The notes beneath the pieces are model-generated. The model searched no databases. It saw only the letters and a list, made by a program, of their open reading frames with translations, and had not been told where the DNA came from. Source: an uncultured Acidobacteriota bacterium (lineage in GTDB: Bacteria > Acidobacteriota > Blastocatellia > RBC074). Taken from it: 64,000 bases of DNA. Below are positions 1-64,000 of the stretch, in pieces (the stretch's first letter is position 1; the number at the start of each line of letters is the position of its first letter). The stretch is taken from assembly GCA_963743045.1 (NCBI GenBank), contig CAVUOF010000002.1, forward strand, positions 108,993 to 172,992, read 5' to 3'. A program made the translations under genes and the position numbers.

Positions 1-100
1 TGCGCAGCGTAACCTGCGGGGCTTGTGCGAAGACTCCGATGGCCAAGGCCATGCCTACAAGCGCAAAGCCCAGACATCTTGGCAAACTAGACATTTGCAT
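1..100 (-). CDS. partial secreted protein; only the N-terminal signal peptide is in the window, and the gene continues past the left edge
   Basis: Minus-strand ATG at 98-100 is preceded by a GGGGAG RBS. The translation MQMSSLPRCLGFALVGMALAIGVFAQAPQVTLR looks like a signal peptide. Confidence 0.3.
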   Translation of the reverse strand, partial: MQMSSLPRCLGFALVGMALAIGVFAQAPQVTLR

Positions 101-436
101 AACTCCCCTTAAACCGGTCTTTCTCTGTACCAACACCCACCTTGCAAACTACCGGCCAGAAGAGAATAGGCGCAACTTCAATCGGGTCATCCGGACAATT
201 CAATCAGCACGCGATTCTATGCTGCGGAATACTGCGGTACGCCTTAGCAAAACCGCACAACGGCGCGTTCTATGCATGTGCGTCTCGCACGGCGGGGTGA
301 CGCTCTGGATGCCGCTCTGAACCGAGAGCACACATTGAAGCGGCAATTTCCCCATTCTGCCCAATTGAGTGTGCAAGATCACCCAATCGGTTGCCGACAT
401 ACGCCTGGAGGCCACCAATAGTTGAACCGCCGAAGC

Positions 437-452
437 TGGCATATAGATTGCT
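437..452 (+). promoter_or_regulatory. sigma-54 type -24/-12 promoter TGGCATATAGATTGCT upstream of the Hsp20 gene
   Basis: Matches TGGCAC-N5-TTGCW with GG and GC exactly 12 nt apart, about 90 nt upstream of the ATG at 542. Confidence 0.6.
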
Positions 453-541
453 CGATAGTTGTAAGCCCATCACTGGCCAATGGCCGGTCAATAACAGGGT
501 CGCTTTAACAGCAAACGCCAGCAATGGAAAGGAAGGTAGTT

Positions 542-1066
542 ATGCAATCGAAGCAAGCGTTGGAAGCGAAGCAAACCTCCGCCCCAGGTCCGGTCTTTGT
601 CGGATCCGAAAAACTCTCTGAGCGGGCAGTAGAGTTTGCCCAGGCAATTGCCAGACGCGCTTACGAGTTCTTCGAGGGCCGTGGCCGAGCTCTGGGACAC
701 GATCTGGATGACTGGCTTCGCGCCGAATTCGAGTTGAATCGACGTGTTCCCCTGGAACTGAAGGACAACAACAATCAGTTGATCGTCCGCGCGGAAGTGC
801 CAGGCTTCAGGCCGGACGAAATCAAAGTCAGCGTCGAGCCAAATCAGATCATCATCAGCGGAAATACGGAGCAAAGGAAAGAAGGAGAGACGGCGAACGA
901 GGTCTTCTCCGAAATCCAGTCTAATCAATTCTGTCGCCGACTTGGTCTGCCCAAAGAGGTTGATCCTGCGACCGCAGTGGCGACGCTCAAGGACGGTATA
1001 CTAGAACTCACACTGACAAAAATAGCTGCCAGCACACCTACCGAGGTCGAAGTGAAGGTGGCTTAG
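542..1066 (+). CDS. Hsp20/alpha-crystallin small heat-shock protein with a DUF2934-like N-terminal motif
   Basis: ORF 524..1066. The ATG at 542 follows a GGAAAGGAAGG RBS. The alpha-crystallin core is LIVRAEVPGFRPDEIKVSVEPNQIIISG...ATLKDGILELTLTK. The N-terminal motif is IARRAYEFFEGRGRALGHDLDDWLRAE. Confidence 0.85.
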   Translation: MQSKQALEAKQTSAPGPVFVGSEKLSERAVEFAQAIARRAYEFFEGRGRALGHDLDDWLRAEFELNRRVPLELKDNNNQLIVRAEVPGFRPDEIKVSVEPNQIIISGNTEQRKEGETANEVFSEIQSNQFCRRLGLPKEVDPATAVATLKDGILELTLTKIAASTPTEVEVKVA

Positions 1067-1086
1067 CCGGCCGAGTGCCGGCTCTT
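1066..1086 (+). terminator. stem-loop after Hsp20 (GCCGGC-cgagt-GCCGGC followed by tcttg)
   Basis: Perfect 6-bp GC stem immediately after the stop codon. The T-tract is weak. Confidence 0.4.
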
Positions 1087-1377
1087 GCGGACTACACCGC
1101 GAATTTTGTAAGACGTCACCGCGCGTTAATGCTGTGCGAAGTCGTGGCGATGAGCACTTAAACCCTTGCCATCGCCATCGCCAGTGGTGAGGAAGCCTAC
1201 GAGGTTATCGACGCTGCGGATTCCTGTGACTGGAATGAACTGCGCGATGAGGTGGGCGATATCTTTATTAAGAGCTGGTTGGTTGCACGACACTCTTTCG
1301 GCGTGAGAACGAGTCAGCCGAACCTTGCAGAGTGACTCGATGCAACAGCATTTTGCCAGTCTTAAAGACGTCACCCT

Positions 1378-2731
1378 TTATTCGCTTCTCCCTCGGTTTC
1401 GGCCTTCGATCTGCCGAATCTTCAAATAGATAGCCGATAACGCCAAAGAGATCACAATGAGTGAGGCCGCCAGGCCTTTTCGCCTGAATTGAAGTTCGGC
1501 AAGAGCATCCAGTCCTGCTCGATTTGTTTTCTTAGCGACCTCCAGTCCCGGATTGACAGCCGCCCCAAAGAGTTCAGGAGAGAAGCTGTGAATGACGACG
1601 CGCGCGTTAATCAATTTGTCCCGAGCGTCTTTCAGCTCGAACAACGGCCGGCTTACCTCCATTCCTGCTCTGACTGCTCTATCAAGAACGTCCTGTGCTT
1701 CATCGATCTGTCTGGTCAACTGTTCCATCAGTCCGCGCATGCGTTCGGCCGCTTGATGGCCGGCGTCTCCCTGGGTGTGGCAAGTCATGCATTTAGAATT
1801 CTCTCCGGAGCCAAGCATGTCATCGCTTGGCGTTCGGATCTGCATGGTTGCTGTGACAGACCACGCAAGCGGCAAGTTTGGCTGCTTCAAATGGAGTTTT
1901 GTGCGGACTCTTCTGGAAGAGTTCGGACTGACGGCTGTGGCATGTTCCGCAAACGTTCGCGACTGAAGCCACGCCGGGCGGCGCCGCGCCGTGGTTGCCG
2001 TGGCAGTCGTTGCAGGTCGGAGCGGAAAGGTCCTGTTTCTTGAGCAGGGCCTCAGCGTGAACGCTGCCCATATATTTATGCACCTGGTCCGTCGGGATAC
2101 CATAGCTGCGCATATAGTCGGCATTCGCGTGGCATTGGCCGCAAGTCTGAGCGACGTTGGTTGGATAGACTGGCGCGTTGTTGTCGCTCACGGCCCGGAC
2201 TCCGTGAAAGCCGTGACAGCTTATGCAGGTTGCAGGCTTGGTATCGCCTTGCTTTATAAGCTTCCCATGAACGCTCGTGGCGTACTCCGCCTCCTGGTCC
2301 ACCCGCATCGCAGGATTGAACGTCTTCATAAATTCGGCATTGCTGTGGCACTTGCCACAAAACCCGGGTATAGCCTTCGGCGCCGGTTTCGCCACGAATC
2401 CCTTACGCGCATTCATGGCCAACTCCGGGTCGTCCTGGCTCGGGTCGCCACCATGGCAGTCAGCACAGGACAGACCGTGCTGTCGGTGAATGTCGTTCTG
2501 CATTGCCGCGACTGGTGCAGCCAGCTGGTCGCCCATCTGAGTGTGGCACTGGACACAGCTATCCTTGCCCTTCGATGAAGGAACCGCTGCCGCTTTCGGA
2601 ACCGTTTGACTCGCCCCAGTTTTTCCGACCGCCCACGGCGTAAGCAGCCACAGGGCGAGAATGGGCGCCAGCAGTTTGAGCTTTGTGTTACCCGCTCTTC
2701 GACCAACTTGATGAGGTTGACCACCTTCCAT
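1378..2731 (-). CDS. membrane-anchored multihaem cytochrome c (9 CXXCH motifs), frame-broken near 1830
   Basis: ORF 1820..2731 has a signal peptide and 8 CXXCH motifs (CVQCH, CADCH, CGKCH, CISCH, CGQCH, CNDCH, CGTCH, CVVCH). ORF 1378..2124 continues in another frame with CMTCH, a helical region and a C-terminal TM helix ([17 protein letters not shown]). Confidence 0.8.
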
Positions 2732-2743: not shown

Positions 2744-3819
2744 CTAAACCAGGTACCCGACTACCGTCATGACCACTATATAAACAATGACGATCAACCC
2801 GATGACTGTGAAGACCGGACTCTTTGTCCCGCGAGCGGCCTTGCGGTCTAGAAAGGGAACCAGCAACCAGAAGAGGCCGCCGATGGCAAAAGCCGTGACG
2901 CCGAGCACGTCGCCATCAACAGGGCCGATCTTCGCCGGCAGAATCTTGAGCGTTTGGAACATGAAGACAAAGAACCACTCAGGCCTGATGCCCGCCGGCG
3001 CTGATGCAAACGGGTCGGCTTTCTCACCTAGTTCCCACGGGAAAATGGCGGCAAGAGCCGCAAGCACAGCAAGCGCGACAAGCCACCCCATGAGATCCCG
3101 CAGCAGGAAATTGGGTACGAACTTCATCGTCTTTAAGCTCTGCCCTTCCAATCCGGGCGGCACGCTCATGCCCTTTCGCTGTACAAGGAGCAGGTGAACG
3201 GAAGAGCAGGAAGGTAGTCAGCGCCGGCAGGACGGCGACATGAAATCCGTAAAATCGTGTCAATGTTGCTCCGGTCACATCATCGCCGCCCCGCAGGAAG
3301 CGCACGAGGAAGTGCCCGATCACGGGAACCACGCCGGCGATCTCCGTCCCAACCTTTGTCGCGAAGAAACGCAAGCTTGTTCCACGGCAGCAAGTACCCG
3401 CTGAAGCCGAATCCAAGAACGATGAACAACAACAGGACCCCGGTTACCCAGGTCAATTCACGCGGCGGGCGGTAGGCCTTCATCAAATAGACACTGAACA
3501 TGTGGACGAAGAGGGTTGCAATCATCAGGTTGGCCGACCAACTATGAATGGATCGAACCAGCCAGCCGAAGTGCACTTCGCCCATGATAAACTGCACGCT
3601 CTCAAATGCTTTTTCGGAGCTTGGCCGGTAATAAAGCAGGAGCAGCGCCCCGGTTACCACCTGCACCACGAACAGGAATAACGTCATCCCGCCGAAGTAA
3701 TACCAGATGCTATGTCGGTGCGAGGGGACCTCTTTCTTTCGTGCGAGCTCCGCCAGCGGCGTCAGGCCCAGACGATCATCGAGCCACGCCAATGTTCCCG
3801 TTCGCCGCATTGGTTCCAT
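2744..3819 (-). CDS. cytochrome b (b6-like N-terminal half fused to a subunit-IV-like C-terminal half), frame-broken near 3375 and 3195
   Basis: Three ORF pieces (3280..3819, 3024..3416, 2744..3169) join into a continuous cytochrome b. Recognisable segments are [57 protein letters not shown] and [10 protein letters not shown]. Confidence 0.85.
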
Positions 3820-5148: not shown

Positions 5149-6760
5149 TCAGCCTGTTTCTGCCGGGTCTCGCCGTCGGAGCCAATCGGTCGCCATTCGG
5201 GCAAGTGCCCAAAGACTGCCGGCAGTATCCATCGGAAGAGATTCATTGTCGTTCATTGCGCATTGAGGTACGCCCTTCGTCTGCTGCCGCAAGTAAATTT
5301 CCCAAGTGGCATCAGAAAGGCTGCCTCCACGCGCGGCGCGCTCGGCGAGCCTCTGCCGCACAAGTTCCGGCGCCAGCCGGCACTCGATCATTCTCCATTC
5401 GGCGCCAGAGACTCGCGCCATCTCGCGCACCATGGCTCTATCCTCGGCACGCTGAAAGGTGGCATCCAACACTACTGCGCCATCCTCACTGAGTCGTGTG
5501 CGCGCCCATTCGATCATCGTCTGGTAGGTCCGATGATTGGCTTCAGCGGTGTATACCCCTTGCCCATAGCTTGCAGGCTCCTTGGCCGGACCGAAGAGTG
5601 ATTGCCGAACGGCGTCGGCAGAAATCACGCGCAGCCCGAGCTCGCCCGCGACGGCTCGCGCCATCGACGTCTTTCCTGTGCCCGAAAGCCCCGTAACCGT
5701 GATGACCGTGGGCCGCCGCAACCGCGATGCGTACCGCCGCGCCAGCTCGAAAAACTGCCGCGCGCGCTCCGCCGCCGCGGCCTGTTCTTCTACGCTGAAT
5801 TCAGCCTCGTTCAGCCGGAAGCTAAGCACCTTGCCACGCACAAACGCGCGGTAACAGCGGTAGAACGGCAGCAGAGTGAAAAAGTCTTTGTCGCCGGCAC
5901 GTCGCTGGTAACTTTCAGTGAAGAAGTACCCGAGATCGGGCCGGCCTCGCACGTCCAGGTCCATCGCCAGGAAAGCCACTTCGCTCGCCACATCATCACA
6001 CCGGAACCGGTCGTTGAACTCGATGCAGTCGTAGATACAGATGGCATCATCCCTCACACAAATGCTCTCACAACGCACGTCGCCGTGCCCGTCAACGACG
6101 TGGCCTTCACGCACGCGTCGTTCGAATAGGTCGATCCTCGCCAGCCAGTCGTTCACCCATTCGCGAATTGATCGGAAGGTTGCGCCACTGATTGTGCGGC
6201 CGATGAAGGCTGTGGTCTGAGTGAAATTCTCTTCCCAGTTATGGCGAATCTCCGTTGGGCTGCCCCACTTTGCCACGTCAGGCGCGCGTCGGCAGCCCTA
6301 TGGAATTCGAACAGCCGGTCGGCGAGCGGTCAAGCATCGCTTCCGTCACTTCACCGCGAGCCACTAGTCGATCGAGCATTCGGTCGTCCGGCAGTCGTTT
6401 CATCCAGACGCAGTAGTCGACAAGCTTGCCAGCGCGGCCCGAAAATCGGATATGTCCGTCGACCTCGATTACGCTGCCGACGCCAATGTACGTGTCCGGG
6501 CAGAGGCGCCGATTCAAGCGTACTTCGTCTTCGCAGGCCCGTTGCCGCTTTTCTAACGTCGTATAATCGAGAAAGCCGAAATCAACCGGCTTTTTCAGCT
6601 TGACGACATGCTTGCGCCCTAAGAGCAGCACCGAGATGTGTGTCTGAATGACTTTGATCGGCAAGTCATCTGGCGCCCACTCCGGGGCGCAGCGTAGCTG
6701 CTCGATCATCGCCCACCACGACTTCAAATCGGTCTTTTCTTGCGCAGGCACTCCGCTCAC
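5149..6760 (-). CDS. bifunctional aminoglycoside-phosphotransferase-like / P-loop (AAA_33-like) ATP-binding protein, frame-broken twice near 6280-6310
   Basis: The N-terminal piece (ORF 6278..6760) contains IQTHISVLLLGRKHVVKLKKPVDFGFLDYTTLEKRQRACEDEVRLNRRL. The C-terminal piece (ORF 5149..6276) contains the Walker A VTGLSGTGKTS. A third frame supplies LADRLFEFHRAAD between the two pieces. Confidence 0.7.
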
Positions 6761-6775
6761 GAGTGTTCGCCTGTC

Positions 6776-7441
6776 TCAAAATAACGAAATCCTTAGATTG
6801 TCTCTGACGGCCACGACTCCCGGGGCATGGCTGACAGCGCCTACAATTGCCCGCTTCTCCTCCCATGAGTTAATCGAACCGGCGAGCGTTACCGTTCCAT
6901 CGTTCACCTTGACGTCAATGCGGTCAGCCTCGCGATCTGCACGCCGCTCGAGTGCATCCTCAATTACGAACTTTATGTCATTCGGGGCAACTTTCACTGG
7001 ATTGACGACCAGTTTGTTGGTTACACCACTGACGCCATCGCAAGTCGCGGATGGCTTTCTCTGCGTCTTCACGCTCGCTGAGATAGGTTACAGCACCTGT
7101 CAGTGTCACCCAGCCGTTCGCGACCGTCGAGCGAATCTGTTGATCGGGAACAAGCACGTTCCATTCGAGCGCCTCACGTACCGCTTGCGCAATCTCAGTG
7201 TCGGTTCGCGTAAAACTGCCGGTATTTGGACCTTGATGTCGTCGGCTACATCCAGCACGCCGCTTACGCGGTGCGCTGCCTCAAGTGCAGCCAGTTTCTT
7301 GGCGTAGCTGCTTACCGTGCCAGTAAGTGTGACGACTCCCTCATCCACTTCTACTCCAACTTCCGTCTCTTCGACGCGAGTATCCCAGCGTAGTTCCTTC
7401 AGGACATCGTGATGGATTTGTTCATCGGTTTTCGATCTCAT
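6776..7441 (-). CDS. BON-domain protein (OsmY-like, three BON repeats), frame-broken near 7230 and 7070
   Basis: The ATG at 7441 follows an AAGGAGG RBS. BON signatures repeat as VEVDEGVVTLTGTVSS, VANGWVTLTGAV and VKVNDGTVTLAGSINS. It is a paralog of 9230..9896. Confidence 0.8.
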
Positions 7442-7751: not shown

Positions 7752-8226
7752 TTATGCGTTAGGACGTACTGACGACGCCGCCCTGCGCCGCCGCCTTGCC
7801 ACTCCTTCTTCACCAGCGCAAGCAGAATCATCCCGACAATGAAGAAGACCCCAACTGAGAGCAATGCCGGACGCTGGCTGCCAGTCTGCCGCGAGACTCC
7901 CGAAGATCAGTGGGCCGAGAAAAGCCAGTGCCTTGCCTGCCACCCCCAGGAAGCCGGAAGAATTCCGCCGCCCGCTCCTTCGGCGTGAAGAGCGCAAACA
8001 GGCTGCGTGAGACAGATTGACACGAGCCTAGCCCGATGCCCGCCAGCGTGGCGACGACATAGAAACCGGCCTTGCTGGTCGTCAAGTACGCGCACCACTT
8101 GTGCTCTCCTTCAGACTGTCGTACGTCAAGCCTCTCTCTGACAGCTTCATATACTTGATGACTGAGCCGGCGCTTACATGTTGATGAACGTCTGCTTCGT
8201 ATAGCGCTTGTTTTCAGCATAGTCAT
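7752..8226 (-). pseudogene. C-terminal remnant of an MFS (UMF1/Atg22-like) transporter
   Basis: Only the last ~150 residues are recognisable (GIGLGSCQSVSRSLFALFTPKERAAEFF, then GFLGVAGKALAFLGPLIFG in another frame). There is no N-terminal half, and it abuts the stop of the upstream USP gene. Confidence 0.5.
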
Positions 8227-9126
8227 TTCTCTTCTGGGACGACCTCGACCGAGCAGGGCGCATGCGTAGCCACGTAGGACGAGACACTTCCGATCAGGAA
8301 GCGCTCTACGGCCCCCATTCCTCGGGCGCCAACGAAGATGCAGTCAGCTTCCCAGCTTTTTAGCTTCGCTGATCAGCAACTGGCGTGCGCCTTCATGTTT
8401 CATCACTTTGGAGACCTTCAACCCCGAACGCTTCAATCTCGCGACCGCCGTCTCGATCATTTCAGCCACTCGTGCCTTTTCTTCAGCGATCCACTCAGCC
8501 AGGACGGCGTTCGCGTAATCACCGTCGATTAGAGGAAGCACCGCAAAGCCGTTGACTATCCGTACCTCGCTCCGTTGCGGCCAATGGCGCGCGGCCACAG
8601 CTTTCACCGCCGCCTCGGCTCCCCGAGAGCCATCCACGCCTATGATCACGCGAACTGGCTTCCCCAACTCCTTCTCACGGCCACGCGCAATGCGCACGGT
8701 GCTGTGGGCTGCATGCAGCACTTTTTGCGAGACGCTGCCCAGCAGCAGACGTCCTAAGCCCGAACGTCCATGAGAGCCCAGGACGATCAAATCTGCCTTC
8801 AAGTTCTCTGCCCTTTCCAGAATCAGGCGCGCAGGAGATCCAGCCAGGGCCTCCGAATGAATCTTCCACTCAGGGAATGACGACTTCAGCAGGGCCTGCG
8901 CGCGCTGGGCGATCGCCAGAGCGTCTTTACCTCCCTGCTCCAGGTAGCTGGTGAATTTGGTTTCAACCATCCCCAAACTGCTCGGCAGGGGCATCCACTC
9001 CGTGTGAACCGACAAGATATGGACCTCAGTCTTTCTGGGAAGCCCAGCTCGTTTCAGGTCAGCCAGTGCTGCCTTGGCGCATTCTGATTCGTCATAGGCA
9101 ATCAGGATTTTCAACATGTCCGTCAC
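8223..9126 (-). CDS. tandem-domain universal stress protein, frame-broken near 8345
   Basis: [16 protein letters not shown] and [36 protein letters not shown] mark the first domain. A second USP domain continues in another frame as [37 protein letters not shown]. It aligns end to end with 29884..30804. Confidence 0.85.
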
Positions 9127-9229: not shown

Positions 9230-9896
9230 TCAGATCGGCGAAATCGTGAGATGGTCTCTGACTAACACAACTCCCGGGGCATGGCTGACAGCGCCTACAA
9301 TTGCCCGCTTCTTCTCCCATGAATTGATCGACCCAGAGAGTGTTACCGTTCCATTGCTCACATTGACATCTATGCGATAAGCCTCACGATCAGCGCGTCG
9401 CTCGAGTGCGTTTTCAATTACCCTTCGTACAGTGGTGGGGCCAACGTCCATGGGATTGACCACCAGCTTGTTGACTACACCCCTGACGCCAAGCAAATTG
9501 CGGACCGCCCGCTCAGCGTCTTCACTCTCGCTCAGATAAGCCACGACGCCTTCCAGAGTTACCCAGCCATCCGCAACTGTGGAGCGAATCTGTTGATCGG
9601 GAATGAGCACGTTCCATTCGAGCGCTCCGCGGACCGCTTGAGCAATGTCGGTGTCGGTACGGAAAAGCCACATGGTATCTTCACCTGGATGTCGTTGGCC
9701 ACATCAAGCACGCCACTCACGCGGTGAGCTGCCTCCAATGCAGCCACTTTCTTTGCATAACTGCTTCACCGGTACCGGTAAGCGTGACGACGCCTTTATC
9801 TACCTCGACTCCGACTTCGGTTTCCTCGACTCGATTATCCCAGCGGAGTTCGTGCAGCACGTCATGATGAATTTGTTCATCGGTTCTTGATTTCAT
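9230..9896 (-). CDS. BON-domain protein, paralog of 6776..7441, frame-broken near 9775 and 9665
   Basis: The ATG at 9896 follows an AAAGGAGG RBS. The sequence MKSRTDEQIHHDVLHELRWDNRVEETEVGVEVDKGVVTLTG...SINSWEKKRAIVGAVSHAPGV aligns by eye with the other copy. Confidence 0.8.
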
Positions 9897-11078: not shown

Positions 11079-12170
11079 ATGCGGACTCTAAAGACTGGTC
11101 TCATCACAGCTTTCTTCTTAATGACTGTGACGATGCTTATCGCCCCAAAGTTCGTCGGCTTGACCGTGACGCTTGCTCAGGACACAGCTCCGACCAAGTC
11201 GGGCAACGGCTCCAAGCCAGCCAAGAACGCACCGCAAGCCAAAGATAACCAGCCGGTCGACGCAAGCCAGTACGTAGGCAGCAGCGCCTGTGCGGAATGC
11301 CACACCGACATCGCTGCGTTCTTCTCCGTCACTGCGCATCACAAGACTCTGGGCGGGAACAGACCGGTGGATTTGCAAGGGTGCGAGGCATGCCATGGCC
11401 CCGCCGGCAAACACATCGAGTATTACCAGACGGCGCAGAAATTGGTGAAGGAGGGCAAGGACGAGGAAGCCGGCAAGATGTACGCAGATGAAGCCAGGAG
11501 CGCTGCAGCCAAGATGCGCAGCTTTGGCAGTCTTTCGTCCGCCGCGGCATCCGCGGTTTGTCTCAAGTGTCACGAAGGCACCGAGGGCAAGAGTGGCGAA
11601 CGATTCAATTTCAGGCGGAGCGAACACTTCCGCCACGGCGTATCCTGCCTGGATTGCCACTCGTCGCATTCACCAAAGCGTACTGAATTCCTTCTGCGGG
11701 CTGCCGAACCGGACGGCTGTTACCAATGCCATGCCGAGCAGAAGACCTCTTTTGCGCGCCCGTTCCATCATAAAGTCCCTGAGGGTGGAATGAAGTGCTC
11801 TGATTGTCATAATCAGCACGGCGGCTTTTACGTCAAGCAACTGCGCACCTGGGCCAGCGGCGATATCAATTGCGTCAAGTGTCACACGGACAAGGCCGGC
11901 CCCTTCGTCTACGAGCATGCTCCGATCAAGATCGAGGGCTGTCAGGCCTGTCACACCCCGCATGGTTCAACCAACCCGCGGCTCCTGAAGCGCAATGAGA
12001 TCAGGTTCCTGTGCCTCGAGTGCCACTCAAATACGCCTGGGATTCCTGCCGACTCGGAGGGTCCGGCGACGCCGTCATTTCATAATCTCGCAACAACGCG
12101 GTTCCAGAACTGCACAACTTGTCACGCCATGATCCATGGCTCCAACGTCAACAATCGCTTCTTCCGCTAG
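11079..12170 (+). CDS. periplasmic decahaem cytochrome c, MtrA/DmsE/MtoA family
   Basis: Signal peptide plus exactly 10 CXXCH motifs in 363 aa. The C-terminus [16 protein letters not shown] is typical of the family. Confidence 0.9.
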
Positions 12171-12189
12171 GAAGAGGACGGAGGTTTAC

Positions 12190-14279: not shown

Positions 14280-14285
14280 ATCAAC

Positions 14286-14661
14286 ATGGAGAAGACTATG
14301 AACTTAAGGACTCTGAGATTGAAGACAGCCTTGATCACGACAATTCCGGCGATCGCCCTGGTTATCGCAACCTGGTCCGCGAACGGAATACAGGCAGCCG
14401 GCTCGGCTGTCCAGGACGCTAAAGCGACATTCAACTCCAAGTGCGCATCCTGTCACGGACTCGATGGCGGCGCGGCGACTGCCAAGGGCAAGGAGCTCAA
14501 GATGAAGGATCTTCGTTCACCCGAGGTTCAGGGCATGTCCGACGACCAGCTGTACAAGGTAATCGCCAAGCGGCAAGGGTAAGATGCCACCATACGAGAA
14601 GAGCCTTGGCGCCGACACCTGCCATAAGCTGGTCGCTTATATTCGCAGCATGAAGAAATGA
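14286..14661 (+). CDS. class I monohaem cytochrome c (in the MtoD-like position), frame-broken at ~14571
   Basis: Signal peptide and CASCHG. Removing one C at 14571 restores KGKGKMPPYEKSLGADTCHKLVAYIRSMKK. Confidence 0.75.
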
Positions 14662-17348: not shown

Positions 17349-17394
17349 CCTGCCCAGAGTGGAGGACATTGCGAGTCAAGCAATGTGAAAAGCA

Positions 17395-18342: not shown

Positions 18343-18351
18343 AGCCGGGCA

Positions 18352-18808
18352 ATGAGAAAGGATGCGATGCAGATTGGCCCACTCAAAGAGAACGATTCAC
18401 TGGCGATTCTCCGAAGAAGCAGTCTGGGGCGCCTCGGCTGCGTCGACCAAAACGCGCCATACGTAGTGCCGGTCAACTACCTCTTTGACGGCAAAGACAT
18501 TTACATTCATTCTTTGCCGGGTCGGAAGATTGATGCCATGCGAGCCAACTCCCGTGTCTGCTTTCAGGTAGATGAGATCACGGATGCGTTTCACTGGCGG
18601 AGTGTGATTGCCTTCGGAAATTACGAGGAAATCTCCGATCCGGAGACGCGGGAGAGCGATGTTGGGCAAACTCTTCACCCGGTTGCCGCATATGACACCG
18701 GTTGAAACCAGGATGACGCGAGGCATGAGCGAGATGATTCTCTTTCGCATCAAAGTAGGCACGATTACAGGAGTCGGCGAAGACTGGGGAGCAGGCGGAT
18801 CGGCCTGA
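18352..18808 (+). CDS. pyridoxamine 5'-phosphate oxidase family (flavin-binding split-barrel) protein, frame-broken near 18660
   Basis: Contains [56 protein letters not shown]...WRSVIAFG. The tail continues in ORF 18608..18808. Confidence 0.7.
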
Positions 18809-52778: not shown

Positions 52779-55546
52779 ATGAGTACAACGAGATCCAACA
52801 GCACTGAGCCGGCCCACGACATCCTCCGTCCCTCACATCGGCCACTCGACTTCTTCTTTTCACCGCGCACGGTGGCCGTCATCGGCGCCACTGAAAAGAC
52901 GGGAAGCGTCGGCCGCACCATCCTCTGGAACCTGATCAGCAGTCCCTTCGGCGGCACCGTGTTTCCTGTGAACCTGAAGGGCAGGAACGTCCTGGGAATC
53001 AAGTCCTATCGGAGCATTGCGCGAGGTTCCGGAACCCGTCGACCTCGCGGTAATTGTCACGCCCGCGGCCACTGTTCCGGCCCTGATTGGCGAATGCGGG
53101 GATGCAGGCGTCAAAGCCTCGATCATCATCTCGGCAGGATTCAAAGAGAGCGGCCCTGAGGGGAAATCGCTCGAGCGGCAGGTGCTCGACCAGGGTCGGC
53201 GTAGCTCGATGCGTATCATAGGCCCAAACTGTCTTGGAGTGATGAGCCCGCTGACAGGCCTCAATGCGACGTTCGCAGCAGGCATTGCGCGGGCTGGAAA
53301 CGTGAGCTTCATCAGTCAAAGCGGCGCGCTTTGCACGGCAATACTTGACTGGAGTCTCTCGGCGAATATCGGATTCAGCGCCTTCGTGTCGGTTGGCTCA
53401 ATGCTTGATGTCGGATGGGCTGATCTCATCTACTACTTCGGCGACGATCCGCGAACCAAAAGCATCGTTATCTACATGGAGACCATTGGTGATGCGCGGG
53501 CCTTCTTGTCGGCAGCGCGCGAGGTTTCCCTGACAAAACCCATCATTGTGATTAAGGCCGGACGGACGGTGGAGGCTGCGAAGGCCGCCGCTTCTCACAC
53601 CGGATCACTTGCGGGCAGTGATGAGGTGCTCGACGCCGCTTTCAGGCGCTGCGGCGTCTTGCGTGTCAGCAATATCGCCGATGTCTTCTATATGGCAGAG
53701 ATTCTGGCCAAGCAGCCACGACCCAAGGGACCCCGGCTGACCATCGTGACCAACGCCGGAGGCCCAGCCGTTCTGGCGACGGACGAGCTGATTGCCAACG
53801 GCGGTCATCTGGCCGACTTGTCTGGCGAGACGATGACGGAGCTGAACAGTTTCCTTCCGATGCACTGGAGTCATGCCAATCCCATCGACATCCTCGGCGA
53901 CGCCGGATCCGGCAACCTACGCGAAGACTGTCGAGGTCCTTGCGAGCGATGCCAACAGCGATGGGATACTTGTCATCCTCACTCCTCAGTCCATGACCGA
54001 CCCGACTCAGACGGCCGAGCAGCTTACGCACTATGCCAGGCTTCCAGGCAAACCAATTCTCACAAGCTGGATGGGAGGGGCCGGCGTTGCAGCAGGCGAG
54101 GCCATACTCAATCGCGCCGGCATTCCAACCTTCCCGTATCCCGATGCCGCCGCCCGCGCGTTCAACTATATGTGGCGCTATAGCGACGCCCTGCGGAGAC
54201 TCTATGAGACACCAAGCTTGCCCGCTGAGGAGGACGAAGACTACTCAAATCGGACTATCGTAAGGGAGATCATTCAGCAGGCCCGCAAGTCGGGACGCAC
54301 GCTTCTGACCGAGAGTGAGTCCAAGCGGATACTCAATCTCTACAGTATCCCTACCGTTGAGACTCATGTGGCGGCAAGCGAAAACGCGGCTGTCGTGTCG
54401 GCCGATGAAATCGGCTACCCGGTTGTGCTCAAGCTATATTCGGAGACTGTCACACATAAGACCGACGTCGGGGGCGTCAAGCTCAACCTGCGTGATGCCG
54501 AATCCGTTCGTGCGGCCTACCGTGAAATTGAATCTGCTGTCCGAGACCGCGTGGGGGTAGAGCATTTCCAGGGCGTCACGGTGCAACCGATGATCACGCT
54601 TGAGGGCTACGAGCTGATCATTGGCAGCAGCATTGACCCTCAGTTCGGCCCCGTGCTGCTCTTTGGCTCGGGCGGTCAACTAGTGGAGGTTTTTAAGGAC
54701 CACGCTCTTGCCTTGCCTCCGCTCAACTCGACGCTGGCCCGGCGAATGATGGAGCAGACTCGCATTTTTGCTGCGCTTCGAGGTGTCCGCGGTCGCAAAC
54801 CCATCGATCTTGAGAAGTTAGAGGGCCTGCTGGTTCGCTTCAGCGCTTTGGTGGTTGAACAACCGTGGATCAGAGAGATTGACATCAATCCCCTGCTCGC
54901 GTCGCCTGAGTCATTGATCGCACTCGACGCACGGATTGTCGTGCACGGCTCCGAATTGAGTGAAGAACAATTGCCCAGGTCGGCAATTCGTCCTTATCCA
55001 ACTCAGTACGCAAGCGCATGGAGATTGAAGGATGACACCCCGGTAATGATTCGCCCCATTCGTCCGGAGGACGAACCGCTCATGGTCAGGTTCCACGAAG
55101 CGTTGTCGGAACAGAGCGTCTACTGGCGTTACTTCTATCCCATGAAACTCCCCCAGCGCGTCGCCCACGACCGGCTGCAGAGGATCTGTTTCATCGACTA
55201 TGATCGCGAAATGGCGCTTGTTGCCGAACATCGCCTTCCGACCGGGGAACGCCAGATAGTTGCGGTCGGCCGTTTAAGCAAGTCGCATGACGACAACGAA
55301 GCTGAGTTTGCGATCCTGATCAGTGATCAATTCCAACGACAGGGATTGGGGACAGAAATGCTCAAACGCGTAGTAGCCGTCGGGCGCCATGAGGGGCTGC
55401 GGCGAATAGTTGGAAGTATACTGCCGGACAATCAGGGAATGCAGAAGGTGTCCAGGGCTGTGGGTTTCTCACTTCGCACTGATATGGATGAGCACCTGGT
55501 AAAAGCAGAACTCACCCTCCAAGTCGATCGTCCGGCGGCAACCTGA
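52779..55546 (+). CDS. ADP-forming acetyl-CoA synthetase-like / GNAT acetyltransferase fusion (Pat-type protein acetyltransferase architecture), frame-broken near 53017 and 53898
   Basis: Contains the CoA-binding [15 protein letters not shown], the succinyl-CoA-synthetase-like IIGPNCLG, an ATP-grasp part ([23 protein letters not shown]) and a C-terminal GNAT motif ([13 protein letters not shown]). Confidence 0.85.
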
Positions 55547-55594
55547 ACATCTCTATCGTATGAAGATGGATGATTTCGCCGGTCTCAGGATTGA

Positions 55595-55738
55595 CTTTCA
55601 GCCGCGATATTGTAGCTCCCTTCCCGAGTGACGTAACCTTCGCTTTCCAGTTCGATTACTCGCTGATGGAAAGCATCCGAGCCCCATTCACGGACGATGA
55701 CCAATTCATCCTGTGCAGATACTGTCATAAAATAGGGC
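55595..55738 (-). CDS. small hypothetical protein (47 aa as read; possibly ~75 aa if a frame break near 55600 is repaired)
   Basis: Translation MTVSAQDELVIVREWGSDAFHQRVIELESEGYVTREGSYNIAAE. A shifted frame continues as [16 protein letters not shown]. The ORF is below the length cutoff of the supplied track. Confidence 0.3.
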
Positions 55739-55959
55739 CCTCCCGCCCGGCGAAAGTGGGAATACGAAATTCAATTGCTGGGCTCCCCCGCCGCAGGGGC
55801 GGCTCGCGAGCCGCCCCACGTGGCAATCACTTGCAAGTTCCAGGCCGTGCAAAATGGCCGTACTTTCCTCGACCTCTCAATGCAGTTCTGCGAGATTTTG
55901 CGCAAACTCAGGGGCAAAAGTGGGGAACTTTGCGTGTTGTCCAACTTGAAAGGACCAAA

Positions 55960-57503
55960 ATGAGCTTATCAGTCTTGCTTTCCGCGCTTGCGTTGGCGGC
56001 TAGCGCGCTCGTATCGCAATCCGACCTGAGTGGATACTGGGTTCTGCGGGTGCCCAGGGCAAACGGCGACGGTACCTTCCAGGAGACCTTCTTCGAACTG
56101 AAACAGAGCGGCGAAGAGGTGACCGGCCGTCAGCTCGTAGGGCAACGGGAACTTCCGATAACCGAAGGTGTGTTCAAAGACGGCACTCTCCACTTCGTCC
56201 TGACACCACCGGGACGCGGAGCGGGCGCGGCCCCGCTTCGACTGGTCTATGAAGGCAAGCTTGCGCCCGACGGCAGTTTCTCGCTGACGAGCACCGGTCG
56301 AGGGCCGGCTCCGATCACCGGGAGGTTCGAGCGGAGCAGCAAGCAGGCGGCACTGCCGGCTCCGCTACCGTTGCCGGCTCTGCACAACGTTCCCGACAAC
56401 GGCCTCGTTCGCACGCCACCGATGGGTTGGAACAGCTGGAACAAGTTCGCTGGGAGGGTTGCGGACGCTGACGTCCGCGGCATGGCGGATGCCATGGTGG
56501 CGAGTGGCATGCCAGGGCGGGCTATGTATACGTCAACATCGACGACACTTGGGAGGGCCAGTCGCGCGATGCAAACGGCAATATAACAACCAACAAGAAG
56601 TTTCCCGACATGAAGGCGCTCGCCGATTACGTGCATTCGAAGGGTCTGAAGATCGGCATCTATTCATCACCGGGACCAAAGACCTGCGCCGGCTATGAGG
56701 CGAGTTACGGTCACGAAGAACAGGACGCGAAGCAGTTCGCAGCGTGGGGATTCGACTATCTGAAGTATGACTGGTGCAGCGCAGGCAATATCTATAAGGA
56801 CGAGGACATGCAGGCCGTCTACCAGAAGATGGGCGATGCTCTTCTCAAGGCCGGACGCCCGATCGTCTACAGCTTGTGTCAATACGGTCGCAGCGAGGTC
56901 TGGAAATGGGGCGGCAAGGTGGGCGGCAATCTCTGGCGCACTACGGGCGATATTCGAGATGCCTGGCAGTCACTTGATCAGATAGGTTTTGGGAGGCGAG
57001 TCCCTGGAGAGCGAACGCAGCTCGATATCGCCGCAGCGATGAAGCCCGGGCAGTTCAATGATCCTGACATGCTCGAGATCGGCAACGGCGGGATGACGGG
57101 CGATGAATACCGTCTGCATATGAGCCTGTGGGCTCTACTGTCAGCTCCCCTGCTGGCCGGAAACGATCTTCGCACGATGACCGAAGAGATCAAGAGCATC
57201 CTCATGAATACGGAGGTGATTGCGGTCGATCAGGACAAGGCCGTCAATCCACCAAAGAAGATCTCGGAGGAAGGCACCTCGATCGTCATTGCCAAGACTC
57301 TTGCTGATGGTTCGACTGCCGTTGGCCTCTTCAATCGCGGTGATAATGCCGCGCACATTTCGGTCAGCTGGTCGAGCCTGGGTATCAGTGGCCGGAGGCC
57401 AAAGGTCCGCGATCTGTGGCAGCACAAGGCTGTGGAAGTCTCAGGTGACAGCTTCACGGCTTCTGTGCCTAAGCATGGCGTCGTAATGCTGCGCGTTTCA
57501 TAA
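55960..57503 (+). CDS. glycoside hydrolase family 27 alpha-galactosidase with an N-terminal extra domain, frame-broken near 56510
   Basis: Signal peptide, then PPMGWNSWN, YVNIDDTW, LKYDWC and DMLEIGNGGMT. Confidence 0.85.
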
Positions 57504-57774: not shown

Positions 57775-59455
57775 TCACGCGAATGCCAAAGCGAGCAGCG
57801 ATGCGAGGCTGACAATGTCGGCTACAAGCCGCGTCGTTGTTCGGGTCCAGACAAGTTCAATCTGGTGCTCACCGGCCGGGACATCAACACGAACGAGTCC
57901 GCTCGGTCTTGCCGGCGCTGCGGGCACCGAAGTCCCATCAATCCGCGCCTCCCAGCCCGGAAACCATGCAATCGAAAACTCCGCGGTCCAGGGTGTCGCA
58001 GCTTTGACGTTCCCTGACCAGTTGACGGGCGTCCGCTCCGATTGCCGCACGTCTGCCTCGCCGGAGACGACCCGGATTGGACGTGGATCGTAAACTGGCT
58101 TCTCTTCCGTCCAGCGAGGGGTATACTCGGCGGCCGTCGTAACCTCCACTCCACGTGAGGCAATCTGTTGTGGAGTCCAGAGCGCAAGGTCGATGTCGTC
58201 AAACTGCTTCGGCTGCATATGAGCAAGATTGGGCACGATCAATAGTGCCATGGCTGCCACATAGCCTGTCACTCGCAGGCGCGGCATTGAGCTCAATAAT
58301 GGTCCCAGCGCCGCCACGACCAGCGCAATGCAAACCGCCGCAGGCGCAAGCAATCGCCATGGAAACTCGACGAATCGCAGTAGTGGCGCATGGTCCCAGA
58401 ACCATACCGCGTCCTGAAGCGTGAGAATGCAAAAGACCAGAGCACTGATGGCCAAAGAAGCGAAGCCATCGCCGATCGCCGGCCACAGGCTTGCGCGCCG
58501 TCCAGATCCCCGCAATGAGTGCCAGCAGTAGATGGCTCCAACCCACGGCAAAGGACATTCCATCCTGATCACCCGCGACGGAGATTCCATAACCCCAGGG
58601 CGAATAGAACAGCTGGTGCAGGTAGACGAAATGGTTGGAGTAATTCAGATATCCCTGGAGCAGACGGTCCAGGTGCACTGAGTCGCGTTCAACCAGCGCC
58701 GGAATCCAGATAAACGCGCCCAGTCCGAGTCCGGCCAGCCAGGCCAATGCCTGTCGACTCAAGACGCTCCATGACCCAGCAACCCATGCGGTAACGCAAA
58801 TGTAGGCAAGCAGCAACGGAGTGAAGAACAGGGCGCTCGCATTGTGACTGAGGAGGACGCCGGCGTACGAGGCAGCTCCAAGCAGGAGGTATCCCACTCG
58901 CTCAGGGCGTTTGGCGTAAGCGCCGAACCCATACATTGCGAACGCGAAGAATGGGAATGCGGCAAACTCCGCGAGGTCGGACCGGACGTAGAGGTTGACG
59001 CTGAAATAGGGGGCGTAAAGGTACGCGGCCGCAGCCAGCCATCCTCCTCCGTCGCCGAAATGCAGGCGGCCCAGGAGAAACATTCCCAAAGCCGAAGCCA
59101 GCACCAGGACTACACACGCGAGGTTGAGCGCGGTGATGAAATCGAATCCCAAGATGTGCCAGAGCTCACCCGCGTAATAGATCATCGGCGGGTTAAAGAG
59201 AAACAGGGGCTGTCCTGTTCCCCGGCTCAAGTCGGGTGCCCACTTCGGAAAGAGAACGCCACTCGAAATGTTCTGATGAAACTCCACCATCCGCGGGAAG
59301 TATTCGAATGCGTCGTGACCGTCAGGAAGAGCCGAGGTAAATAGCGAGATGCAAACCGGAATTGATAACAGCAGAAGACCGGCTCCAACGCATGCGCGGC
59401 GCCGGGCCGTCGGGCTGGCTATCGTCTCAAAGGTAAGGATGGGCCAACCGGACAT
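57775..59455 (-). CDS. large polytopic membrane protein, GT-C-like / PTPS-related (COG5617-like) putative glycosyltransferase with a C-terminal extracytoplasmic domain, frame-broken near 58480
   Basis: Contains FPKWAPDLSRGTGQPLFLFNPPMIYYAGELW, followed by many TM helices. The C-terminal soluble domain ends with a TM helix. The family call is by pattern only. Confidence 0.6.
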
Positions 59456-61566
59456 GAAAATCGCGGTACTCGGCGACTCCCATGAGTACCGCCCCAAGTA
59501 ATCCGAAGATAGCCAGGAAGAACTTCCACCTTCCAGGCTCATACCGAAGGAGAACTGCATGACGCCCTGCAGTCAACGGCACGCCGACAAAGCCGGGTGA
59601 AAGCATAACCGTCTGCTCGGCGTGTCCGTCGACATATGCCTTCCATTTCGGATGCCAGGTCATTCGGAAGAGCGCAAATCCTGGGTGCACAGCCTGCAAC
59701 TGCGCCTCATAGGTCTCGCCATCCTGATGCTCGCTCTCAACAGTCCCCGCAATAGACCCGGAAGGCGGAGACGGTAAATTGTCGTCAGCAGAAAGCCGAA
59801 GCAGACCGGAAGGCACATAGCCGGAAAGCGTGAGCAATAGGTGTTGTTTCCGGGCCACCCAATCGCTCTGAAGCCAGCGATCGTTCACCTCATAGAAATT
59901 GCGCCGGGTGATGAGAATTGCAGCCGGCGCGTCGACTACATCGAAGTATCCGGTGCCGGGAGCATCGAAGACCGTAACCGGACCAATCTCCTTACGCGGT
60001 GCAAGGAATCCGGGCAGAGTTTGCCGCTGAAGGGGCCACTACGGAGCGGACATTGAAGAGACGATAGTGGTCAGGTTCCCATTCGTTGAACCGGACCATG
60101 ACGTCTCCGGTCAGCGCCATCGAATGGTAGAGGAAGGCGACAGCCGGCACATGCGCTCTGCTCAAGAACGCGTAGAACGGTACATCGCCAATCTTGAATG
60201 ATCCTCCCCACGAGGCTGCAAGACCCGCGTAAGCCCGGCCTCCATGCGTCTGAAGATCGGCGATTGCGCCGTCCACCGATGCTCGTTCCGATGCAAACGC
60301 TGTGAGATTCCTTCGACCCCATGAGTCATTGTTGGAGAGAAACCGGCCGCGTTCGCGAAACGCCGGGTAGAGGAGCACGGCCGTTATCAGGATTGCTGCT
60401 ATGGCTCGCCTTGTCCCGAGGAGCGCGCGCCAGATAGCCGCCAGCCCGAAGGCACCCAGCAGGACAAGGAAGACATGAACAGCGCCGATTGTGCGGTGCA
60501 GCTGCAAGTCGGGTGTTGCTCCAAGCAGCTCGAGTGCAGGCCCCCAGAAGGGTCGCCCGAAGTAGACGAGAATCCAGAATATTGCTCCCGCGGCTACGAA
60601 GAGCTGCGCGCGCCGGAAGGTCCCCGAGCGCCAGGCCCAGAGTGTTGCGCCGATGCCCAGAAGGACGAGAAGCGAGAGCACCGGCAGACGGCCGTGATCG
60701 AGGAGCTCGCCGGTGAAGAGCCACGCCAGAATCTGGCCGGCTCCAAATGAATCCCACTTCCAGACCGATTCCCACCGGCTGTGATTGATGATGCCGACAT
60801 CCGCGAGCATCGGCACCAGCTCCCACGCCACGAGCAAAAAAGTCACCACGCCCACAAAGACCAGACGCCTTGCTCGAGTCACAAGAGTAGCTCTCTCGTC
60901 CGGGATTACCGCGAGCAGGCAGATCGTCAGTGCGGCCATGTAGCCGTAGATAAAATTGCTGAGGAACGCCAGCGCCACGAGGACGCCCGTAAGCGCGAGA
61001 TGGCGGCCACTCGGGAGAGCACGGAATGCCAGTCCGATCGACAGAAGGAAGAAGTGAGTGGCGATCGCCTGGGTGAAGAGGCCGCTCCCAGCCCACAGGT
61101 AACTTCCATATTCGATGCCGTAGAGGAAGTTTGTCGAGATCAAAGGTGAGAGCAATGCCGCGGCCGCGGCCTCGAGCGGCGAGAACCTCATCAGGCGTGC
61201 CGTGACAAAGAATGTCAACGGGAGAAGCGCCACGGAGAGATATCGGACCCAGACAAAGACCGTCATCAGCGTGACGGTCTTGCCGAGACAAAAGTAGACA
61301 AGCGCTACCAGGCCGTGCGCGAGTGGTTGATAGGTCCGAAGTACCGGATACCCGAATGACCACTCGGGCGACCATGAATCAAGGCCACTTGAACCTCGCT
61401 CGATGGCTCGCACCATGCTGTCGACAAGGGTGAAGTGGAAGACGTTATCGTTGAGGTCGACACGACTAATCAGAAGTTCGGGTGATAAGGCGAGAAGATT
61501 TACGACGAGAATAGCAAGCAGGAGAGTGAATGAGACAAGCTCTTCGCGAGAGGGCTTCGATTGCAA
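59427..61566 (-). CDS. second large polytopic GT-C-like membrane protein with a C-terminal beta-rich domain, frame-broken near 60020; the start (TTG at 61566) is uncertain
   Basis: More than 10 TM segments. The C-terminal WHPKWKAYVDGHAEQTVMLSPGFVGVPLTAGRHAVLLRYEP resembles the tail of the neighbouring protein (WFPGWEARIDGTSVP...VPAGEHQIELVW). Its 3' end overlaps the next gene's ATG by 29 nt. Confidence 0.6.
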
Positions 61567-61660
61567 GGGTGCTTGACGACGTGAGGTGTTGATGCCAGAA
61601 AACGAACGACCTGTCAGACTTCTTTCCGCGATGCAAAGGGCCGGACCGTAAATGCCACGG

Positions 61661-62718
61661 CTATGAGATAGGGCCCGGTGGTCCAGTTGGCCCGGCTGGT
61701 CCAACCGGTCCTGCAATTCCGGATACTCCGGTCGGACCCGAAGGCTCCAGTGGGTCCAACCGGTCCTGTTGGTCCTGTCGGACCCGATGCCCCCGAGGGC
61801 CCTAAAGGACCGGACGGCCCGCTCGGACCCGCAACTCCTTGAACTCCGAATGTTCCGCTCGGACCCGAAGGTCCAGTGGGTCCAACCGGTCCTGTTGGCC
61901 CTGTCGGACCCGATGCCCCAGAGGGCCCTAAAGGACCGGACGGCCCGCTCGGACCCGCAACTCCTTGAACTCCGAATGTTCCGCTCGGACCCGAAGGTCC
62001 AGTGGGTCCAACCGGTCCTGTTGGTCCTGTCGGACCCGATGCCCCCGAGGGCCCTGAAAGGACCGGACGGCCCGCTCGGACCCAGAGGCCCGGACGGTCC
62101 AGTCGCGCCACTCGCTCCAGCTAATCCTGACGGTCCTATCAATCCGACGGGTCCTGTCGATCCTTGAGCCCCGGTTGCTCCCGACCCGCCCAGCGCGCCG
62201 AGCGATCCTGTGAAGCCTGATGGTCCCATTGCTCCCCGCGCACCGGAAACTCCGCTTGCACCTGCCGGACCCGCCACGATAGGAGATCTGCCTTTGGGCC
62301 CCTGTGCTCCACTCGGCCCGCTCGAGCCTTCTGGCCCCAGCACCCCGATAACGACGAATGAGTTTACGGAGTGGGCTGGGTCGCAGTCCTCCAAGACCAC
62401 ACGGTAGGTTCCAGAATTGTTTGCGATTGTGTCGTCGATCTGAGCCGTGACCAGGGTATCTGTAAAGGTGATCACCGGCTGCGACACGCCGCCGACGAAA
62501 ATTGTGGGTGTTGCGCAACCAATGCCCGCGGTGAGGTTCATCCCGATAATTTGGAGCTGCGCGGGTTGAACATCGGTGATCAAGCGGATGTTGGTAATAA
62601 TTGGTTGCGTGTCGGTTGCCGACACACCTACTACGCTCACAGGGGTGAGAGCCAGAGTCAACACGCAAAGCGTAAGCCCGACTCTGCGCAACCACGAATC
62701 ATGAAGATGAGGCGACAT
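61661..62718 (-). CDS. secreted IPT/TIG-like + collagen triple-helix-repeat protein (copy 1), frame-broken by 1-nt insertions near 62056 and 61745
   Basis: Signal peptide, an ~85-aa Ig-like domain ([26 protein letters not shown]...[10 protein letters not shown]), then a long Gly-X-Y array. Repairing both insertions gives the ending GPPGPIS. Confidence 0.8.
61728..62100. repeat. about 3 tandem copies of a 126-bp (42-aa) Gly-X-Y unit inside collagen-like gene 1
   Basis: The unit encodes [42 protein letters not shown]. Copies are almost identical at the DNA level. Confidence 0.85.
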
Positions 62719-62749
62719 TCGTCTCAAGGATAATCGCCCTAGGGTGTTA

Positions 62750-63853
62750 TTAGGGTCCAGCCGGTCCTGTTGCTCCCGTAGCTCCAGTCGCTCCGGCCGA
62801 CCCGATTGGTCCTGTTGGTCCCGTCGGACCTGTTGCCCCCGAGGGCCCCGACGGGCCAGACGGCCCGAATGGACCCGCAGCTCCCTGCAGTCCGATTGCT
62901 CCGCTCGGACCCGAAGGTCCAGTGGGTCCAACCGGTCCTGTTGGCCCTGTCGGACCCGATGCCCCCGAGGGCCCTAAAGGACCGGACGGCCCGCTCGGAC
63001 CCGCAACTCCTTGAACTCCGAATGTTCCGCTCGGACCCGAAGGTCCAGTGGGTCCAACCGGTCCTGTTGGTCCTGTCGGACCCGATGCCCCCGAGGGCCC
63101 TAAAGGACCGGACGGCCCGCTCGGACCCGCAACTCCTTGAACTCCGAATGTTCCGCTCGGACCCGAAGGTCCAGTGGGTCCAACCGGCCCTGTTGGTCCT
63201 GTCGGACCTGGTCCTCCCGAAGGCCCTGAAGGACCCTGTGGTCCGGTAGGCCCGCTGGCGCCAGTTGGTCCCGAGGGTCCCGTCGCCCCCAGCGCTCCCA
63301 GGGCGCCCGCCGGACCCGTGCCGCCTGTCGGGCCTGTCGCACCCGTCGGACCTGAGGGTCCCAGCTCTCCAAAAGCTCCTGTCGGACCTTTCGGCCCCGG
63401 TACAAGGATCGGCTTGGCCGCAGGCCCGGTTGGTCCCGACGGTCCGCTTGGCCCCTCAGGACCCTGGTCTCCGATGACGACGATGAAGTCAGCTGTGTGG
63501 GCCGCATCACAATCCTGCAGAACCACGCGATACGTTCCGGGACTGTTGGCGATTGAGGCGTCGACTTGAGCCGCTATAAGGGTATCCGTGAAGGTTATGA
63601 TCGGGAGCGACACGCCGTTCAAAATGATGGACGGCATGGTGCAACCGTTGTCGCCGGTAAGATTCGTTCCGATCAGCTGGAGCTGGGCGGGCTGAACACT
63701 CGTGATCAGTCGGCTGATGTTAATGACCGGTTGCGCGTCGGCGTGGGCACTCAAGGTACTAACAGGCGCAAGGACCGGCGCAATAGCCACAACAACGGCG
63801 CACAGAAGGGCTCGCATCGTGCCCAACCGGGCACGAGGATGAACCTGGGGCAT
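62750..63853 (-). CDS. secreted IPT/TIG-like + collagen triple-helix-repeat protein (copy 2, intact)
   Basis: The ATG at 63853 follows a GAGGA RBS. Signal peptide ends ...STLSAHA. Contains the same Ig-like domain and about 75 Gly-X-Y triplets, and ends GPAGP. Confidence 0.85.
62901..63205. repeat. about 2.4 tandem copies of the same 126-bp Gly-X-Y unit inside collagen-like gene 2
   Basis: The units at 62901-63026 and 63027-63152 are near-identical to each other and to those in gene 1. Confidence 0.85.
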
Positions 63854-63980
63854 GGGGTCCTCAGTGAGAACAAAGAGCGAAGACACTTCGCGTTTTCGCA
63901 CGCAGCGCTGATACTTCTATCAGCCAGCGCAGTACCTGTCAAGATTCCTGGCGTCTTGCGTCACTGCAACGGGAGCAATT

Positions 63981-64000
63981 TGGAGTGCGGCGACCTGTCG
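63981..64000. repeat. partial family-B REP/MITE end at the window edge
   Basis: TGGAGTGCGGCGACCTGTCG matches the family-B TIR with one mismatch. It is truncated by the end of the window. Confidence 0.55.

Follow-up and report, generated by a model that had tools for sequence, protein, structure and literature searches.

Frame breaks in the genome of an uncultured Acidobacteriota bacterium as very probable consensus errors of its assembly

The genes in a stretch of 64,000 nt from an uncultured Acidobacteriota bacterium (contig C2:108993-172992 of genome G000, hereafter the window) are frequently broken by the gain or loss of a single nucleotide. The six-frame list of open reading frames (ORFs) for positions 1-64000 contains many ORFs that overlap on the same strand in different frames. 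Judged from sequence comparison, these frame breaks are, with high probability, consensus errors of the assembly and not mutations of the organism. We favor this reading because rpoB and nuo genes are hit, because nonsense codons do not occur alongside the breaks, because independent contigs do not have the extra bases, and because the defect follows the type of assembly. The indels could be assigned a location and a sign. They are spread over the whole genome, including essential genes, and are absent from near-identical assemblies of independent origin. A preliminary description of the window had attributed the breaks to assembly indel noise. This attribution is supported by the genome-wide spread, the damage to essential genes, the lack of stops and the absence from near-identical contigs, but two amendments are required. 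The process is strongly biased toward insertions without being linked to homopolymers, and it is overdispersed at the genome level and not strictly Poisson.

Genome G000 consists of 4.78 Mb in 33 contigs, with a marker completeness of 78% and a contamination of 2%. According to the names of its homologs, it belongs to the class Blastocatellia (Acidobacteriota). All evidence is comparative, with relatives and public metagenome contigs as references. Syntenic stretches were collected from seven relatives of the same family, which have short-read-like assemblies with many contigs. When the intact ORFs from these stretches were searched against the window by tblastn, 21 genes were seen to change frame, with a total of 30 collinear switches. 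Frame events were counted with a frameshift-aware protein-to-DNA dynamic programme (DP), which is similar to diamond -F and GeneWise; an alignment of this type had been suggested as a check in the preliminary description. DP was used instead of a single-edit junction scan (300-nt windows), which is unreliable near paired breaks or gene ends. It localized 43 frame events in 38 genes, which add up to 39,106 aligned nt, so that the frequency is 1.10 per kb. The events are 30 insertions and 7 deletions of one base, 4 deletions of two bases and 2 insertions of two bases. The region 52.4-62.7 kb and the gene for the GH2 beta-galactosidase are without relatives at the DNA level, and the full-length references used there are public metagenome contigs. 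In this part of the window, single Pfam or NCBIfam domains are cut between adjacent ORFs. Thirteen events were added to those from DP, 11 of them from metagenome-contig references and 2 from the phase of a Gly-X-Y repeat.

The number of events in the window thus amounts to about 56. Support is good for about 45 of them and weak for about 12, which are located in N-termini, in part of a gene or in a pair of short matches (32682, 33179). The preliminary description had reported 40-45 breaks. The breaks are real, and the figure is right to slightly low. About 45 events are of the +1 type (an extra base) and about 11 of the -1 type, so that about 80% are +1. Among the genes of at least 1 kb that were aligned by DP, 11-12 of 17 are split, in agreement with the earlier statement that two-thirds of the long genes are affected. 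Within the window, the distribution approximates a Poisson process: 15 genes are unbroken, versus 14.7 expected (dispersion test, p = 0.017).

Stop codons were counted inside the DP alignments, as a raw ORF-based count is dominated by ORFs that the relatives have in shadow frames. In-frame stops had been described as nearly absent, and none was found in the 12,978 codons aligned for the 38 genes, nor in the additional genes aligned to metagenome references. The amino acid identity to orthologs is steady across the breaks, as illustrated by the consecutive segments of the formate dehydrogenase alpha subunit FdhA (72/73/69%), of a P-type ATPase (68/70/78%) and of a further case (71/82/67%). Large deletions were not seen in the 38 aligned genes.

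Three public metagenome contigs allow a comparison at the DNA level. These are L059 (Logan contig SRR3507923_56201, 96.8% and 94.7% identical to the window over 4.4 kb), L060 (JGI contig Ga0669113_0014757, 92.2% over 5.1 kb) and L071 (JGI contig Ga0673049_0098087, 91.0% over 3.1 kb). They cover ten of the junctions (42297, 41767, 40319, 48191, 48525, 51395, 51917, 53020, 53908 and 55595), and at all ten, the extra base is found only in the window. In these contigs, the genes for the GH2 protein, for both P-type ATPases and for the fusion of acetate-CoA ligase with a GNAT domain (ACS/GNAT) are intact, and FdhA (in L059) is encoded in one frame. The remaining in-gene differences between the window and these contigs are substitutions, 3-nt indels and compensated gap pairs. 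In the short-read contig L059, FdhA has an in-frame TAG (L059:2302-2304) at the position of the conserved GQNNVQG glutamine, which is CAG in the window (42435 region). Either that population has a real nonsense allele, or the contig is in error here.

Three junctions had been specified in the preliminary description. The extra C at 14571 was placed exactly. At 62056, there is an extra T in CCTTTCAGG, and its deletion restores the collagen repeat, as claimed. The third junction, given as a G at about 53898, is real, but base and position have to be corrected to an extra T at 53908 by comparison with two near-identical contigs. The restored ACS/GNAT sequence reads ILGDAGPATYAK, and not ILGDADPATYAK as had been proposed.

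Additional single-base differences to the contigs of 91-92% identity are found in intergenic DNA and at gene ends (49961, 49996, 52478, 52557, 52565, 52664). They fit a context-blind error process; natural intergenic indels are also possible there.

DNA alignment placed 26 insertions to the base. Only 9 of the 26 adjoin an identical base, and a shared motif was not detected around them (at most 0.22 bit per aligned column). Within 80 nt of a switch, the longest homopolymer measures 3.4-3.5 nt, which is the same as for random coding positions, so that a link to homopolymers is not seen. Thus, neither a slippery sequence nor any other shared signal is associated with the breaks.

The breaks are not restricted to the window. 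For the complete genome, an intrinsic caller was applied (5th-order periodic Markov/Viterbi, trained on G000), with a switch being defined as a change of frame on the same strand while the upstream frame is still open. This caller recovers about 40-45% of the homology-supported breaks (23 of roughly 50 in the window) and takes several real genes as non-coding. It was therefore used only for relative rates versus controls. It reports 1432 frame switches in G000 (3.74 per 10 kb coding). These occur on all 33 contigs. The identical detector finds 0.50 per 10 kb coding in the controls (436 kb coding, from 545 kb of DNA of the relatives), so that the rate in G000 is 7.5 times that of the controls. 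The ratio of +1 to -1 switches is 992:440 in G000 versus 6:16 in the controls. When the 1,432 calls are roughly extrapolated at a sensitivity of about 40-45%, G000 probably contains about 3,000 frame-breaking indels. The earlier claim of a Poisson process applies inside the window but not genome-wide, where the variance/mean ratio is 2.3 in 20-kb bins. Two hot spots (C13:1-20000 and C19:1-35000) have 13-21 switches per 10 kb, 4-5 times the genome average. They may be due to low coverage at the contig ends, to strain-variable DNA or to repetitive giant genes.

Essential genes are affected as well. The sole rpoB locus of G000 (C22:140481-144867) is split across frames. It was compared to genomes G008 and G005, while G003 was dropped as a reference because it is itself error-ridden. 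At least 10 single-base insertions lie in this gene, all of them within 1.3 kb (C22:142635-143932); single-base deletions are absent. When the frames are followed, the protein is free of stops and 85% identical to its orthologs. No breaks are seen in the first 2.1 kb of rpoB or anywhere in rpoC (4.3 kb). A local cluster of errors of this kind suggests a stretch of very low read support. In 10 relatives, rpoB is intact and is represented by a single ORF of 1454-1504 aa. Among the nuo genes of G000, nuoG has two breaks, while nuoF and nuoD have one each. In the 16S rRNA gene (C18:109921), there is one unique inserted A (GGCTT[A]ATCAAG), which same-family relatives lack and which is absent from all four 16S genes compared. 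Probably, an RNA gene was affected here by the same error process; the insertion fits the error rate, with little statistical weight.

Similar damage is seen in the two other genomes of the family that have few contigs, where it affects other essential genes. In G007 (30 contigs, 82% completeness), rpoB is found in at least six pieces. In G003 (50 contigs), there are four events in rpoC and one each in two genes that adjoin rpoB (243 aa, of L1 length, and 194 aa). The compared relatives with 130-490 contigs are clean in these genes. The defect follows the assembly type and not the lineage. In addition, G003:C43 has at about 53,546-54,700 (L013 8546-9700) a block of about 1.2 kb that consists nearly completely of long runs of C, G and A, up to G51. 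It is obvious that this is a junk insert from sequencing or assembly in a public species-representative genome.

How the errors may have arisen can be sketched as follows. G000 looks like a metagenome-assembled genome of the long-read type, and its consensus would be unpolished or not fully polished; the sequencing platform and the pipeline are presumed to be of this type as well. About one base per kb would be wrong, in the form of a single-nucleotide indel. Around 80% of these would be spurious insertions, scattered irrespective of the surrounding sequence. With every spurious base, the frame would shift, upon which gene callers would emit 2-4 overlapping ORF fragments per gene. Local clusters may reflect low read support. 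The homopolymer association that marks errors of the nanopore, 454 and Ion Torrent subtype is not seen, so that the errors would belong to a random-insertion subtype.

Long-read metagenome contigs are the closest known parallel. For these, 6 indels per kb were reported when unpolished and 1.2 per kb after short-read polishing, together with a poor CheckM performance and depressed completeness values (Arumugam et al. 2019, Microbiome 7:61, PMC6469205). As in these contigs, single-base indels split conserved genes, with homology continuing in another frame, and the frequency in the window (1.1 per kb aligned) is similar to the published value for polished contigs. The completeness of G000 is likewise depressed, despite its contiguity, and full-length proteins are restored by frameshift-aware alignment. 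The errors observed here differ from this parallel in being locally clustered (e.g. in rpoB and where C13 and C19 begin).

Several points weigh against assembly error as the explanation. The evidence is purely comparative, so that the errors are demonstrated indirectly rather than from reads. The contigs used for comparison are 91-97% identical and represent a different strain; taken alone, they are compatible with lineage-specific mutations. Homopolymer deletions are usually expected in nanopore data. The bias toward insertions (about 80%) and the missing homopolymer association are unlike this textbook signature. Finally, the breaks are overdispersed (variance/mean 2.3, with 10 in 1.3 kb of rpoB but none in 4.3 kb of rpoC), which makes the extra assumption of locally low read support necessary.

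A mixed case is conceivable, in which most breaks are errors but a minority (<10%) are real frameshift or pseudogene alleles at the strain level that entered the consensus. Natural populations do carry some disrupted accessory genes, and several of the weak events are in poorly conserved N-termini. Also, the TAG in FdhA of L059 indicates that disrupted alleles, or errors, occur in other data, too. As no single break can be distinguished from the background process, and as each of the ten junctions that could be checked is an extra base of the window alone, we consider such a minority possible but rather unlikely.

Alternatively, the indels might be true mutations that reflect recent and massive pseudogenization, with the genome in decay, as in a lineage that is dying out or has newly become restricted to a host. 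The broken genes are numerous and spread over the genome, the marker completeness is only 78%, and the references are from other strains, so that lineage-specific mutations would be possible. In pseudogene-rich reductive genomes (Mycobacterium leprae, Sodalis-type symbionts), a large share of the genes is interrupted, with recognizable fragments, and the same applies here. In those genomes, nonsense codons, deletions and frameshifts are mixed, and essential genes are spared. Here, only frameshifts occur, and rpoB and nuo genes are hit. From mutation spectra, substitutions that create stops are expected to be no rarer than indels under neutral decay. In the roughly 13,000 codons examined here, about 45-56 frameshifts are seen, but no nonsense codon. 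Amino acid identity is not diminished after the breaks, large deletions are not seen, and similar damage affects other genes in unrelated assemblies with few contigs. A single-copy rpoB with at least 10 frameshifts, together with broken nuoD, nuoF and nuoG, is incompatible with a living cell; a living cell with this rpoB is impossible. We thus regard pseudogenization on this scale as very improbable. More generally, if the extra bases were truly present in the DNA, the lineage would either have a very efficient, context-independent +1 decoding or be in the midst of a wholesale inactivation of its genome, and we find this hardly credible.

Programmed +1 ribosomal frameshifting of the prfB/RF2 type depends on a slippery or stop-codon context that is conserved, and it is conserved among orthologs. 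Skipping of a single extra base yields the full-length protein in such genes as well as in the window, but the breaks in the window have neither a motif nor conserved sites. Pervasive recoding, where real extra bases are bypassed by ribosomal frameshifting of the +1 type at high efficiency, by transcriptional slippage or by quadruplet decoding, would account for the one sign of about 80% of the events and for proteins that read through perfectly with one base skipped, but it can practically be dismissed, as the 26 exactly localized sites have no common slippery or stimulatory motif, the sites are not conserved in the 91-97% identical contigs or in any relative, about 20% of the events are -1, single-base discrepancies also occur in intergenic DNA and in the 16S rRNA, where decoding is irrelevant, and rpoB, with its ten sites in a 1.3-kb segment, would yield a negligible amount of full-length product at any known frameshifting efficiency.

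The frame events are listed by gene in Table 1. The identities given in the preliminary description (cytochrome b, FdhA, two P-type ATPases, GH2, GH27, ACS/GNAT, histidine kinase, and the universal stress proteins (USPs) and BON-domain proteins) agree with the references.

Table 1. Frame events in the genes of the window (+1, extra base; -1, missing base).
Gene	Coordinates	Strand	Frame event	Basis or comparison
HSP20 gene	528..1063	+	possible event near 538-541 (weak, N-terminal)	DP
Multihaem cytochrome c	1399..2581	-	extra base near 1843 (+1)	DP versus L019 ortholog; Pfam of reference
Cytochrome b	2750..3786	-	extra bases near 3369, 3200	80% amino acid identity with frames followed
AAA_33-domain protein	5167..6772	-	net +1 within 6289-6324	tblastn, DP
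BON-domain gene	6779..7441	-	-1 near 7224, +1 near 7037	DP
MFS/ATG22-like C-terminal fragment	7783..8091	-	1-3 shifts (weak)	tblastn, DP
USP gene	8226..9114	-	extra base near 8355	tblastn, DP
BON-domain gene	9242..9896	-	two -1 events near 9766, 9665	tblastn, DP
728-aa outer-membrane-barrel-like protein (MtrB-like in the preliminary description)	12154..14276	+	extra bases near 12991, 13169	DP
Class I cytochrome c	14238..14658	+	extra C at 14571	DP
Tandem-USP gene	17389..18324	+	extra bases near 17560, 17930, 17943	tblastn, DP
PNPOx-like gene	18258..18787	+	extra base near 18658 (18354 uncertain)	tblastn, DP
Citrate synthase	21609..22995	+	possible paired events 21685/21714, N-terminal extension (weak)	DP
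CBS-domain protein	23105..25000	+	+1 near 24080, -1 near 24367	tblastn, DP
470-aa conserved gene	25218..26547	-	+1-type shift near 26325	tblastn, DP
ABC-transporter ATPase	27277..27968	+	shifts near 27334, 27845	tblastn, DP
USP gene	28370..28851	-	extra bases near 28455, 28430	DP
BON-domain gene	29178..29808	-	extra base near 29514	DP
Two short matches	32632..33246	-	frame switches near 32682, 33179 (weak)	tblastn only
Sensor histidine kinase	35371..36510	+	extra bases near 35590, 36044, 36117	tblastn, DP
GH2 beta-galactosidase (GalB-like)	38670..41301	+	extra C at 40319/40320	Pfam/NCBIfam halves in two frames; absent from L059 (94.7%)
Formate dehydrogenase alpha (FdhA)	41390..44052	-	extra C at 42297, extra A at 41767	both absent from L059 (96.8%)
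Pyridine-nucleotide-disulphide oxidoreductase	44940..46063	+	extra base near 46015 (44958 uncertain)	DP
P-type cation ATPase	47437..49868	-	extra bases at 48525, 48191	both absent from L060 (92%), intact there (856 aa)
Second P-type (Ca2+-type) ATPase	50015..52443	+	extra bases at 51395, 51917	absent from L060, intact there (825 aa)
ACS/GNAT fusion	52779..55540	+	extra bases at 53020/53021, 53908 (T)	absent from L071 and L070, intact there (921/914 aa)
Small conserved gene	55527..55932	-	extra C at 55595/55596 (55732, 55838 weaker)	metagenome-contig references
GH27 alpha-galactosidase	55960..57500	+	one missing base at 56511/56512 (GG->G)	only deletion in the metagenome-reference set
YfhO-like membrane protein	57784..59663	-	extra bases near 59429, 58452/58453	metagenome-contig references
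152-aa gene	59663..60120	-	extra bases near 60021, 59807/59808	metagenome-contig references
Second collagen-like gene	61660..62695	-	Gly-X-Y phase +1 at 62056 (extra T), again near 61735	

Two gene calls illustrate the effect on annotation. At 979 aa, the ORF at 59992-62931 (minus strand) is the longest in the window, but it is not a gene. Because the Gly-X-Y phase jumps at 62056 and at about 61735, it has to be considered a chimera, made up of the 5' part of the collagen-like gene, a GC-rich stretch that is spuriously open and, in the same frame, the gene that follows (of the GT-C/YfhO neighborhood). The deposited gene call P0121 (488 aa, 49928-51460, plus strand) is a truncated N-terminal fragment of the P-type ATPase of 825 aa. 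This fragment is already a cluster of its own in a large protein collection.

As a separate observation, homopolymers of at least 5-6 nt are about half as frequent per Mb in G000 as in short-read relatives of similar G+C, and 8-mers are found at a quarter of their number. No link between this depletion in G000 and the frame breaks was established. It may be a compression effect of the consensus or a true trait of the lineage.

The frame breaks are not a biological feature, and there is no biological novelty in them. The value of the finding is that of a caveat, which applies to every gene call and every finding on G000. This genome is a species representative. Truncated gene calls such as P0121 are already contained in public protein collections. 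Long ORFs in G000 can be chimeras, as exemplified by the one of 979 aa, and marker completeness is under-estimated. Before pseudogenes, split genes, short novel proteins, overlapping ORFs or odd gene ends are claimed for G000, a frameshift-aware alignment must be made.

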